A stretch of 64,000 bases of DNA from Salinispira sp. (GTDB taxonomy: Bacteria; Spirochaetota; Spirochaetia; DSM-27196; Salinispiraceae): the NCBI GenBank assembly GCA_965602015.1, contig OZ271918.1, positions 2,432,001 to 2,496,000 of the forward strand, in the 5' to 3' direction. The notes beneath the pieces were generated by a model. That model did no database searches. It was not told the origin of the DNA and worked only from the letters and a program-made list of their open reading frames with translations. Shown piece by piece: positions 60,526 to 64,000 of this stretch. Numbering within the stretch: position 1 is the stretch's first letter; each line of letters opens with the position of its first letter. Both the position numbers and the translations under genes were made by a program.

Positions 60526-61253
60526 CAGTGAGAGGTGCAGCCCGACGGATATGCAGGCATGTTTTGCTGCCGGTTCTCGCCGCGGGCCTCATTGCTGGGG
60601 CAGGCGGGGTTGGGGCACAGCCCCTCTCCGGCGCTGAGGGACAGACAGCCCTGGCACGAGCACAGGCGGTCAGGGAGGCTGAAGCCATATTCGCTCAAAC
60701 TCAGGCTGAGCGGGAAAACCTGTCCCGCTCACGCCAGATAGCCCGCTATGAACGGGGATTGATGCTGATTGAACAGGTGCTGTCCGCCGACACAAAAAAC
60801 GCCCACGCCTGGTATCTGCGGGCGCTGCTCTCCGGTGCCCGAGGAGAGGTCAGGGGTCTGTTGGCCGCCGCAGGAGAAGTGCCGGGAATTATTGAGGCGC
60901 TTGAGCGCTGCATCAGCCTTGACCAGCGGCATGTGGACGCCTGGGCGACCCTGTCGAGGGTGCATACAGCCCTTCCGACTCTTCTGGGGGGCGATAAAGA
61001 CCGGGCGGTTGAAGCAGCGCGCCAGGCCCAGACCCTTTTGGAAAGCCGCCGGGATGCTGCAGGGCAGCCCGGGCATAATAATATTGAGCTAATCACCCTG
61101 AGGGCAGTTCTGGCCCGCGCCTTGTGGGTGCGCAATGACCGCGGGGACAGAAGCGAAGCCCGCCGAATTACCGGGGAAATTCGTGCTTCAGCAGAGCAGA
61201 ACCGCATTACCCTCCCCGACCGGGTGGCGGACGATCTGGCAGCCGTGCGCTAA
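60522..61253 (+). CDS. Exported TPR-like protein
   Basis: Signal peptide and helical repeats (AHAWYLRA, ALERCISLD...AW); GTGA overlap with hrpA. Confidence 0.65.
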   Translation: MTVRGAARRICRHVLLPVLAAGLIAGAGGVGAQPLSGAEGQTALARAQAVREAEAIFAQTQAERENLSRSRQIARYERGLMLIEQVLSADTKNAHAWYLRALLSGARGEVRGLLAAAGEVPGIIEALERCISLDQRHVDAWATLSRVHTALPTLLGGDKDRAVEAARQAQTLLESRRDAAGQPGHNNIELITLRAVLARALWVRNDRGDRSEARRITGEIRASAEQNRITLPDRVADDLAAVR

Positions 61254-61580
61254 AGACGCCTTACATGACCTTAGGCATTCCGCCTCACAAGGAGCTTATC
61301 GGCGCAGCTTTGTAAGCGCCGAGTGGGATAAAACATTTTTTAGGATAGGATACAACCTCTTCAGCAAGTCCATTAGCGGCTACGCCGCACTCCTGGTGAC
61401 CTTAATAATTGCTCTCGTTAGCGACACGATTATCGAAGTTAACTCAAAATCCAGATACTAAAGCACAAGAAGTAATCTTCTGTTATTATCATCTTCGTGC
61501 ATCGAGGGGCAGGGATGGATGGGATTTCTATAGAGCATGTGGCTGAAGATAGTGTATCTTAATCATAAAGGTGAGATCAA

Positions 61581-61811
61581 ATGAACGAAAGAATCGAAAT
61601 AAACCCTGTCATTTGCCATGGGAAACCGGTCATACGGGGAACACGTGTTCTCGTTTCAAATATTCTAGGCGAATTAGCCAGTGGTGCCGTTTTCGATGCA
61701 GTTATTGAGATTTATCCAAATATCAATGTAGAAGATATTCTTGCTGCACTTGAATTTTCCAGTGAACTTACGCAATTTGATACCATTTCTTATCAAGACT
61801 TGGCAGTATGA
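61581..61811 (+). CDS. DUF433 family antitoxin (VapB45-like)
   Basis: RIEINPVICHGKPVIRGTRV...YP....EDI.AAL is the DUF433 pattern. Confidence 0.92.
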   Translation: MNERIEINPVICHGKPVIRGTRVLVSNILGELASGAVFDAVIEIYPNINVEDILAALEFSSELTQFDTISYQDLAV

Positions 61812-62161
61812 AGTTTTTTCTTCATGAGAATTTTCCCAAATCAGCTATTCAGTTCCTGAATGAGCGAGGGCATAAATCCTTCGATATTCGTGGGACAGAG
61901 AATGAAGGCCTTGATGATTTCTCTATCTTTCAACTGGCGAAGGAAAAGTCAGCAATTTTCCTCACTTGTGACCGGGACTTTTTTCATACCATCCACCTGA
62001 CTGAAAAACCGCATTATGGAATCATTGTCATAACTCTTCGAAAGCCAAATGGAAAGGCTATAATCGATAAGCTGCTGTGGGTCATGGATCGCCTTGACCA
62101 TTTCAGCTTTACTGACGAATGCATTCTCTTGACAGATAATAATTGCACCATTTATCGCTAA
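61808..62161 (+). CDS. DUF5615 PIN-like toxin (VapC45-like)
   Basis: MKFFL(H)EN, LNERGH, GLDD..I, LTCDRDF, HYGII; ATGA coupling to the DUF433 gene. Confidence 0.88.
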   Translation: MKFFLHENFPKSAIQFLNERGHKSFDIRGTENEGLDDFSIFQLAKEKSAIFLTCDRDFFHTIHLTEKPHYGIIVITLRKPNGKAIIDKLLWVMDRLDHFSFTDECILLTDNNCTIYR

Positions 62162-62169
62162 CAGAAAGC

Positions 62170-62334
62170 AACCGCAGTCGTGCGGGAGCGCGGATTAGAA
62201 CCCGACGACCACGATTTCCTCGCCGGTCGACTTTTTATCGCTCCCCGTGCGGGAGCGCGGATTAAAACATGTACTGCGTTTTCTATACAAGCCCGCTATT
62301 AGATCGCTCCCTGTGGGAAAGCGATTTTTGCTGC
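62170..62334 (+). CRISPR. Orphan degenerate CRISPR mini-array, type I-C-like repeat, 2 spacers
   Basis: Intact repeat ATCGCTCCCCGTGCGGGAGCGCGGATTAAAAC (62237-62268). A 5'-eroded copy ends at 62201 (22/23 identity over its 3' part) and a 3'-eroded copy starts at 62303. Spacers are 35 and 34 nt. Confidence 0.85.
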
Positions 62335-62413
62335 TCTGTAGTTTTACTGGCGTAATCCAACCGTTCAGATATCTTAGCAACAGTTTTTATTCTGTTTATG
62401 GATTCCATAAATT

Positions 62414-63764
62414 GATCACGTCCAATAATGTTCGCAATTTAGAAAAGTAAAAGGAGCCACAATTCTCTCCGAAGGTTAAGTAGCGATACACAACCAGAAG
62501 GAGTAAGTAATCATGGCCCCAAAAAACTCTACCGCAGATTTCAAGAATCTGCTATCCCAATTCACCGGTGAATCCGATCCCTTGTTTGAGATGCTCAAAT
62601 GGACAACAGAGCAGCTTATGAAAATCGAAGTCGAATCCAAGGTCGGTGCCCCCAAAGGTCAGCACTCCCACAACCGGGCTACTCACTTTTCCGGAACACG
62701 GGTTCGCCGTTTTGATACCCGATTAGGTACCATGTATCTGGTGGTTCCAAAGCTCCGAAAGGGAGGGTATATCCCCTTCTTTGTCACCGAGAAGCGCCGG
62801 TCTGAGCAGGCGCTTCTTCAGGTTGTCCAGGAAGCATTCATTAACGGCGTTTCAACCCGGAAGATTGATCGTCTGGCAAAACAGCTGGGAATCGAGAATA
62901 TTTCCGCAAGCCAGGTTTCAGAAATCAACAAAGGTCTTGATGAACAGGTTGATACATTTCGCAATCGCCCCCTTGAAGCGGAGTACCCAGTAATCTGGAT
63001 AGACGCCCTGTATGAAAAGATCCGGGATGACGGGAGAGTCTACAATCATGCGGTTATGGTCGTGTGCGGCCTCAACAGGGCTGGAGAACGGGAAATCCTG
63101 GCCATAGAGCCCATGGATGCTGAAAATGAAGACAATTACCGGTTCCTGATCCAGAGGTTGAAGGAGCGTGGCCTTCGGTCCGTGTGGCTTGTGGTCTCAG
63201 ATGCGCATCTGGGATTGAAGAATGCTATCCAGAAAGAATTCCTTGGTTCCAGCTGGCAACGCTGCAAAGTACATTTCATGCGGAACGTGTTGGCAAAAGT
63301 GAGAGCCAAACACAAAGAGCATGTTGCCGCCCGTATCAAACATATCTGGCTTCAACCGGATGCCGGTACCGCACGGGAATATGCCAAACAGGTGATGGAT
63401 GATCTGGAATCGCAATTCCCTGAGGCGGTGGAAATCCTGGATAACGGACTTGAAGACTCACTCCAGTTCTATGAATTTCCAAAGCTCGATCATCGGAAGG
63501 TCGCTTCGACAAACATGCTGGAAAGACTGAACCGGGAGATCCGTCGGCGGTCGAAAGTCGTCGGGATTTTCCCATCTCAGGATTCTTACCTGAGATTGGT
63601 GACCTGTTTCCTGATTGAATACACGGAAGACTGGACAGCCGGCAAGGCCTATATTAAAAAGGAAATACTGGATGAGCAACGAGATCTCATCCCGAAAATA
63701 GCCGCTTAACCCGCTGGAGGAAGCTGGCTCCTACATGAAATTGCGAACTAATTTGGACACCATC
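62414..63764 (+). mobile_element. IS256-family insertion sequence with 8-bp target-site duplication
   Basis: Terminal inverted repeats 62414-62440 and 63738-63764 (20/27 identical), flanked by the direct repeat CATAAATT at 62406-62413 and 63765-63772. Confidence 0.93.
62513..63709 (+). CDS. IS256-family (mutator) DDE transposase
   Basis: GVSTRK, WIDALYEK, VSDAHLGL, WQRCKVHF, STNMLERLNREIRRR; intact 398 aa. Confidence 0.96.
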   Translation: MAPKNSTADFKNLLSQFTGESDPLFEMLKWTTEQLMKIEVESKVGAPKGQHSHNRATHFSGTRVRRFDTRLGTMYLVVPKLRKGGYIPFFVTEKRRSEQALLQVVQEAFINGVSTRKIDRLAKQLGIENISASQVSEINKGLDEQVDTFRNRPLEAEYPVIWIDALYEKIRDDGRVYNHAVMVVCGLNRAGEREILAIEPMDAENEDNYRFLIQRLKERGLRSVWLVVSDAHLGLKNAIQKEFLGSSWQRCKVHFMRNVLAKVRAKHKEHVAARIKHIWLQPDAGTAREYAKQVMDDLESQFPEAVEILDNGLEDSLQFYEFPKLDHRKVASTNMLERLNREIRRRSKVVGIFPSQDSYLRLVTCFLIEYTEDWTAGKAYIKKEILDEQRDLIPKIAA

Positions 63765-64000
63765 CATAAATTTACTGGAAATCCTTGGCCAAAGTAGAAT
63801 TTCTATAGATGCGATGTAATGCGAAAATGACACTTATTCATATTTATCCGAATTCTTTCTAAGAGCATACCATCAGCAGAGAACTCCTTTTGACCTAGGC
63901 TGCCCCGGTATATGACCCGTCCTAGAATACCGCGTTCTCGGCAAACTCAAATAGATGGGGAATAATCAGGGGGAATCGGTAAGGCCCGTCGGGAAGCTCG

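Follow-up and report, generated by a model that had tools for sequence, protein, structure and literature searches.

A two-spacer type I-C-like CRISPR array behind a DUF433/PIN toxin-antitoxin pair in Salinispira sp., probably the trailer remnant of a lost array

The window analyzed is a stretch of 64,000 nucleotides of Salinispira sp. (assembly GCA_965602015.1, contig OZ271918.1, positions 2,432,001 to 2,496,000 of the forward strand). A variable block of 2.67 kb, bounded by a TPR-like gene on one side and by a convergent NUDIX gene on the other, holds a toxin-antitoxin (TA) pair, a CRISPR mini-array and an insertion sequence. The features of the block are reported below in window coordinates; identities of repeats are given relative to the array repeat of the related genomes G002 and G005.

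61254..63921, no strand: variable block
61546..61560, no strand: palindrome (arms of 6 bp, gap of 3 nt) shortly before the antitoxin start
61581..61811, + strand: DUF433 antitoxin-like gene, 76 aa (Pfam PF04255, E 5.6e-20)
61808..62161, + strand: DUF5615 PIN toxin-like gene, 117 aa (Pfam PF18480, E 1.6e-18)
62170..62201, + strand: R1, partial type I-C repeat (23/32)
62202..62236, + strand: spacer 1 (S1), 35 nt
62237..62268, + strand: R2, near-intact type I-C repeat (31/32), folding into the canonical 7-bp hairpin
62269..62302, + strand: spacer 2 (S2), 34 nt, with a weak seed-like match at 61253-61266 (- strand)
62303..62334, + strand: R3, terminal-type repeat (21/32, and fold)
62414..63764, + strand: IS256-family element (PF00872)

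The mini-array, R1-S1-R2-S2-R3 at 62170-62334, was recovered with the same limits and spacers as in a first-pass annotation of the window, and directly behind the TA operon, as reported there: the register of R1 begins 8 bp past the toxin stop, which ends at 62161. That annotation had described one intact repeat, flanked by a 5'-eroded and a 3'-eroded copy. Both erosions were found. The first 9 nt of R1 are diverged and its 3' 23 nt are retained, with two changes within the 5'-handle part, while in R3 the 5' 9 nt are exact and the 3' part is decayed. R2 is not fully intact, since it differs from the repeat of the relatives by a single G-to-A change, in the part becoming the 5' handle. Of the handle and the hairpin said to enclose S1, the downstream one, the 7-bp hairpin of R2, stood, and the upstream handle carries the two changes in R1. 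R3 forms a bulged hairpin of 9 bp with five T after it, a candidate terminator with a fold z-score of -1.6, and S1 also folds as a hairpin followed by five T; neither was called by a terminator scan.

Apart from R1, no further copy within 9 mismatches of R2 was found in the whole genome, and the sole Rfam match was a sub-threshold one, to CRISPR-DR9. Contigs assembled from three runs of one sample, probably the source sample and hence not independent evidence, span the array in one piece, with flat depth and zero differences, so that a collapsed long array is not indicated. Among the contigs of four runs, no other one carried the repeat or the spacers, which is not proof of absence. The mini-array is a real feature of type I-C origin.

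The assignment to type I-C, already suggested at first pass, was borne out by comparison with relatives, of which G002 belongs to the same genus and G005 to the same family. The repeat of their arrays is one base apart from R2 and has an identical 7-bp hairpin, and repeats matching R2 are located, in relatives, beside genes matching TIGR01876, TIGR01863 and TIGR02589. R2 has the 32 nt, the 7-bp hairpin and the 11-nt handle of a type I-C repeat, and both spacers fall within the range of 33-37 nt of the G002 array, which contains 35 repeats. In G002 and G005 the locus is ordered WYL-cas3-cas5c-cas8c-cas7c-cas4-cas1-cas2-leader-array. The mini-array is like these arrays in its repeat, hairpin, 34-35-nt spacers and decayed terminal repeat; it is unlike them in having neither leader nor cas genes, two spacers against 35 or more, a 5'-damaged R1 and another genomic site. 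The lack of a leader, as originally noted, was confirmed: the DNA before R1 resembles none of the leaders of G002, G005, G003 and G009, and no trace of leader or cas DNA was found upstream of the array.

Some features of the relatives' loci were recorded along the way. The I-C loci of G002, G005 and G003 each open with a WYL-like regulator, identified by eye, ahead of cas3. They occupy different neighborhoods, which suggests that the locus moves within the family. Small genes are found between cas7 and cas4 in the I-C operons of G003 (L028 13275-13758) and G009 (L029 9089-9334); the pair in G003 looks like a TA module.

The leader-distal end was readable in four arrays of relatives (G002, G005, G016 and G054), the other arrays reaching a contig end or having no closing partial repeat. 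In 4/4 of the readable arrays a decayed copy stands one spacer beyond the last full repeat, and it keeps 8-12 nt of its 5' end, the remainder being decayed, as in R3. In addition, the penultimate repeat of G005 carries a G-to-A change in the handle identical to that of R2. A review describes trailer ends as the most stable part of arrays, with terminal repeats bearing 3' changes (PMC8047081, in part). The damage of R1, on the opposite side, is best read as a junction where the upstream DNA was replaced. The conservation of R2, at 31 of 32 positions, means either that the loss was recent or that some constraint acts on it.

The genome, a single contig, is 99.67% complete. The type I-C cas profiles PF05107, PF09704, PF09709 and TIGR02593 gave zero matches in it, and the RAMP and DevR families (PF03787, PF01905) are absent; as positive controls, PF05107 matches were obtained in 12/99 genomes of the order, and TIGR02593 and PF09709 both match in G002. 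A tblastn search of the genome with all 8 proteins of the G005 I-C locus returned nothing better than E 0.032, so that not even pseudogene pieces of I-C cas genes were seen. The cas5c, cas8c, cas7c, cas3 and cas4-1-2 genes of a type I-C locus are lacking. The sole Cas system found is the following one.

C1:1270590-1285586: type I-F system, complete

It lies at 1.27 Mb, about 1.2 Mb apart from the array at 2.494 Mb; the single cas1 of the genome belongs to it, and its 28-nt repeat is unrelated to that of the mini-array. Cas6f is not expected to cut the mini-array hairpin. Type I-C repeats are cut by Cas5 (PMC10651486, in part), and, as no I-C cas genes are present, there is no cognate Cascade or effector for the use of a guide in trans.

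The I-F array itself is in two parts (1278834-1279222 and 1281615-1285586), with about 2.4 kb of transposase-like genes between them, which recur at 1926328-1928556. The 65 spacers parsed from it gave zero matches in the remainder of the genome.

The TA pair resembles vapBC10, an experimentally tested PIN-COG2442 system (PMC3834315, in part). As in VapBC10-type pairs, a DUF433 gene overlaps, by 4 nt, a DUF5615 PIN gene with which it stands in an operon. The antitoxin shows no departure at columns conserved in at least 80% of its homologues. The pair differs from the VapBC10 type at position 6 of the toxin, where His (CAT, 61823-61825) occupies the usual site of the first catalytic Asp. This Asp is present in 157/159 homologous loci, one search pattern for which demanded it, and in 95/96 proteins covering the position, collected by a protein search independent of that pattern. 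D26, D37, D55 and D57 are retained, and the acidic active site is incomplete, missing the Asp after strand 1. Because this residue is almost invariant and essential in PIN domains (PMC5499597, in part), the toxin is predicted to be inactive, and an inactivated PIN toxin is likely on the sequence. No solved structure homologous to the toxin was found by sequence. The palindrome at 61546-61560 is a candidate antitoxin operator; its arms are perfect, and a 20-nt copy, 80% complementary, is located at 61346-61365.

The association between this TA family and CRISPR repeats was evaluated in 160 homologous loci, selected as the best 80 of 351 metagenomic and the best 80 of 216 genomic toxin matches. 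They came from an alignment-based search, a scan of the genome collection with the single toxin having given nothing, and the toxin has no close match in 98 other genomes of the order. The antitoxin is adjacent to the toxin in 157 of these 160 best-matching loci. None of the 160, 152 of which extend at least 200 nt downstream, contains a I-C cas match or a copy of R2 with up to 9 mismatches, indicating that the family is not linked to I-C repeats elsewhere. A generic scan for spaced repeats flagged four of the 160 loci, none CRISPR-like by eye.

The variable block is missing at the same site in two genomes of the same genus. In G002, aroB-like DNA adjoins the TPR-like gene at a distance of at most 26 bp, and in G001, by eye, that gene is directly followed by other, convergent coding DNA. 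The TA genes have 39-40% GC, against 54% for the genome. For the DNA upstream of them, 98 genomes of the order offered no real homologue; a 108-aa ORF within it is without Pfam match. No phage or integrase genes were identified in the 2.7-kb block; an integrase-like word upstream of the TA, spotted by eye, was not supported. The flanks of the G002 and G005 I-C loci map elsewhere in this genome, in a noisy comparison from which only strong blocks were used, so that the block is not a syntenic scar of those exact loci. A separate observation concerns the end of the G001 contig (L005 1-35), which is probably not genomic and which we take to be library adapter sequence.

The IS256 element is bordered by a perfect 8-bp target duplication (62406-62413 and 63765-63772), which implies that it arrived later, cleanly, and did not cut the array; an IS-caused split of the array was rejected on this ground. 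Its left end has five further matches in the genome. At two of these five, C1:3341768 and 3857343, no matching target duplication was found at the expected distance, which hints at IS-linked rearrangement or truncation there. In the same block, 55 bp at 63855-63909 share about 80% identity with a portion of a non-coding element present in about 10 copies in the genome. This element is flanked by a 123-aa gene, presumably GxxExxY-like, on one side and by Rhs-like cassette genes on the other, and small TA-like genes often occur close by. Three clusters of Rhs-like C-terminal cassettes (C1:1921000-1940000, 3335000-3351000 and 3790000-3797000), with variable small downstream genes and intermixed IS elements, look by eye like polymorphic toxin-immunity cassette arrays.

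The spacers were compared against phage, plasmid and host sequences, as the first-pass annotation had recommended, and the comparison gave no foreign target and no TTC-flanked host seed match. In collections of 50,697 phage and 72,556 plasmid records, S1 and S2 had chance-level partial matches or none (best E 0.02, none full-length). Exact scans of IMG/VR found no match for the first 20 nt of S1, nor for the repeat of the relatives. Array and spacers had no match in 300 other genomes of the phylum at E 1e-9, a strict threshold at which repeat-only matches are missed, and the spacers had none in five family genomes, a lone match in G004 being a chance coding match. Seeds of 10 positions occur in the genome, outside the array, 7 times for S1 and 3 times for S2, none of them beside TTC, CTC or TTT. 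A 14-nt match of S2 in cas1 of G005 was rejected, with ATG in the PAM place and 26/127 controls equal. Two partial matches, of S1 to a PKD-repeat gene and of S2 to 61253-61266, exceed most or all controls, and this speaks against a view of the spacer similarities as pure noise.

Taken together, these data are best explained, with a probability which we put at about 0.72, by the mini-array being the trailer remnant of a lost type I-C array within a small variable insert. The leader-distal tail, made up of the last two spacers, would remain of an array that has likely lost its leader, its other spacers and its cas genes. The TA pair would have come to lie beside the trailer through a deletion or recombination with its end point in R1, leaving the remnant behind a likely inactivated DUF433/PIN pair. 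Transcription starting at the TA promoter may run on into the repeats; with neither Cas5c nor a I-C Cascade in the cell, crRNAs would be neither cut nor loaded, and at most the R3 hairpin and its T run may end the TA transcript. IS256 would have arrived afterwards, with the array left whole. Repeat identity, the absence of cas genes and of a leader, the decay of R3, the status of the block as an insert and His6 are the observations on which this account is built, and from them we infer the deletion history, the inactivity of the toxin and the lack of processing.

The first-pass annotation had offered two readings, a relic and a guide used by Cascade in trans. The relic is supported by the absence of I-C cas genes, the missing leader and the trailer-like decay of R3; the guide in trans is not, as no cas5c, cas7c or cas8c occurs in the genome, no PAM-flanked seed target was found and none of the 160 best-matching TA loci shares the arrangement. 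Two outcomes had been named there as fatal to a guide. Of the first, absence of cas5/7/8c genome-wide together with absence of processed RNA, the part on the cas genes was observed. The second, a larger array split by rearrangement, agrees with the trailer-like shape, but no other part of an array was found in the genome and the IS256 insertion is clean. An intact parent I-C locus was likewise not found; this counts against a trailer remnant, and the deletion is thus one that we infer. The retention of the handle by R1 and of the hairpin by R3, as also seen in CreR mini-arrays, would similarly weigh against it.

An orphaned cassette of CRISIS/CreA type, the best surviving alternative, is unlikely. 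The guide would once have let a I-C Cascade repress the TA operon or the gene ahead; loss of the cas genes would have been followed by inactivation of the toxin, and the cassette would be workable again only if a I-C system arrived. In CRISIS loci the repeat unit is found directly behind the supervised genes, as here; the guides have cas5c on their other side, and the site they pair with is TTC/TTA-flanked and 37-46 bp away from the transcription start (bioRxiv 2024.12.27.630466, in part). In CreR mini-arrays the first repeat keeps the handle and the last the hairpin (bioRxiv 2023.03.10.532045, in part), an asymmetry shared by the mini-array, R1 retaining the handle and R3 the hairpin, which keeps this alternative alive. 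Moreover, cas loss would select for a dead toxin, and TA genes do enter I-C operons of the family, if the two small genes of G003 are, as we assume, of such a family.

The likeness to CRISIS loci is one of position only, namely degenerate repeats 8 bp behind a toxin-type operon. Unlike CRISIS, CreA and CreR guides, the mini-array is located neither in nor beside a cognate cas operon, with no cas5c downstream and no cognate Cascade, and has full-length spacers; the layout is found in 0/160 homologous loci (the best 80 of 351 and the best 80 of 216). A rebuilt hairpin in R1 is no better than chance (12.5% of shuffles and 43% of random arms do as well), and a search of the cas regions of 11 relatives for CreR-type targets gave none. 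Partial promoter complementarity with a TTC/TTA PAM is lacking as well. In the 360 bp upstream of the TA, TTC/TTA/TTT/CTC-flanked matches are at background (129-205 of 215 controls equal), and the best PAM-flanked promoter seeds reach 6/10, equalled by 149/215 controls. S2 matches 61253-61266 (- strand), at the left edge of the insert, at 11/12 counted positions; the PAM place reads GTC, and over 14 nt the match is equalled by 0/215 controls. Against it stand a seed mismatch at position 7 and a distance of 315 bp from the antitoxin start; since 7 controls are equal over 11 nt and 27 over 17 nt, significance is lost at these lengths, and the signal, with its window of 14 nt chosen post hoc, is fragile.

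A more specific form of this idea, which we regard as rather improbable, makes the locus the fossil of a I-C-supervised TA, with a two-guide mini-array co-transcribed behind the DUF433/PIN operon, S2 directed against the left edge of the insert, and cas loss forcing the Asp mutation. If true, it would represent a CRISIS-like addiction module on a classical type II TA, caught after collapse; Cascade supervision would then extend to classical protein TA pairs, and the locus would show their disarming after cas loss.

A quite improbable explanation derives S1 from the following host gene, or from a relative of it, with self-targeting that favored the loss of the I-C cas genes, or with S1 acting as a scaRNA-like repressor guide.

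C1:2669257-2670684, - strand: PKD gene, 475 aa, five PKD domains

S1 matches this gene, ungapped and in the same sense, at 26/30 positions (C1:2669486-2669520, - strand), better than 127/127 control spacers and 150/150 shuffles, none of which is as good. The match has CCC in the PAM place, a mismatch at seed position 7 and its last 5 nt unmatched, and is located well inside the coding sequence, some 230 nt ahead of the stop. Two linkers of the 475-aa protein resemble S1 with 9 and 10 mismatches over 35 nt, and four further PKD paralogues are encoded in the genome. In frame, S1 has the look of a PKD linker, so that an origin from any foreign Ig/PKD gene accounts for the similarity; the genome contains no effector. 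The scaRNA of type II-B works with Cas9 and a tracrRNA and pairs in part with a PAM-flanked site close to where a host gene begins. Here, in contrast, the repeat is of type I-C, the only cas1 is of type I-F, and the match, CCC-flanked, is close to the PKD stop.

Two further explanations are given very little weight. A decoy or conflict RNA, Racr-like or from a mobile-element mini-array, would be co-transcribed with the TA genes and would block, or make use of, the I-C Cascade of a different host or of an incoming element: the block, a chromosomal insert, is low-GC and lineage-specific, and RacrIC1, a I-C-like repeat like this one, is located 11 nt behind a protein gene and co-transcribed with it (PMC10651486, in part), but Racrs are solitary units in viral genomes, whereas three repeats and two normal spacers are found here, no phage or integrase genes and no prophage context were recognized in the 2.7-kb block, the relatives' repeat has no exact IMG/VR match, the spacers have no target in phage and plasmid collections, and the host has no I-C system to inhibit. 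Retention of the repeats as a Cas-independent RNA structure, a terminator or stabilizer of the TA transcript, is compatible with a trailer remnant and would draw on the R3 and S1 hairpins with their five T, but neither passed the terminator scan, the z-score of R3 is only -1.6, and the structure is absent from the 160 homologous operons (the best 80 of 351 and the best 80 of 216).

As to its class, the mini-array is most likely an ordinary, cas-less remnant array. Distant arrays account for 23% and orphan arrays for 12% of all arrays; they are shorter than cas-linked ones and may be remnants (Bernheim et al., PMC7145637, in part). The mini-array is like them in being short and far from any cas cluster, being more than 20 kb from a cas cluster and with no cognate one; it is unlike orphan arrays in that a cas cluster is present, though of the non-cognate subtype I-F. 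The pairing of DUF433/DUF5615 or COG2442/COG4634 with CRISPR, or of a mini-array with a TA, is undescribed in the titles and abstract openings searched, a set that has most of the subscription literature, and the supplementary locus lists of the bioRxiv CRISIS and CreR reports, outside it.

A caution follows for the interpretation of similar loci. The combination of a first repeat that keeps the handle and a last repeat that keeps the hairpin can be produced, behind a toxin gene, by a deletion together with normal trailer decay, so that the asymmetry alone is no mark of a CreA/CRISIS guide. For the organism, a trailer remnant would mean that the type I-C system which congeners still carry was once present in its lineage, or in a donor from which the lineage obtained DNA, and that type I-F alone is kept now.
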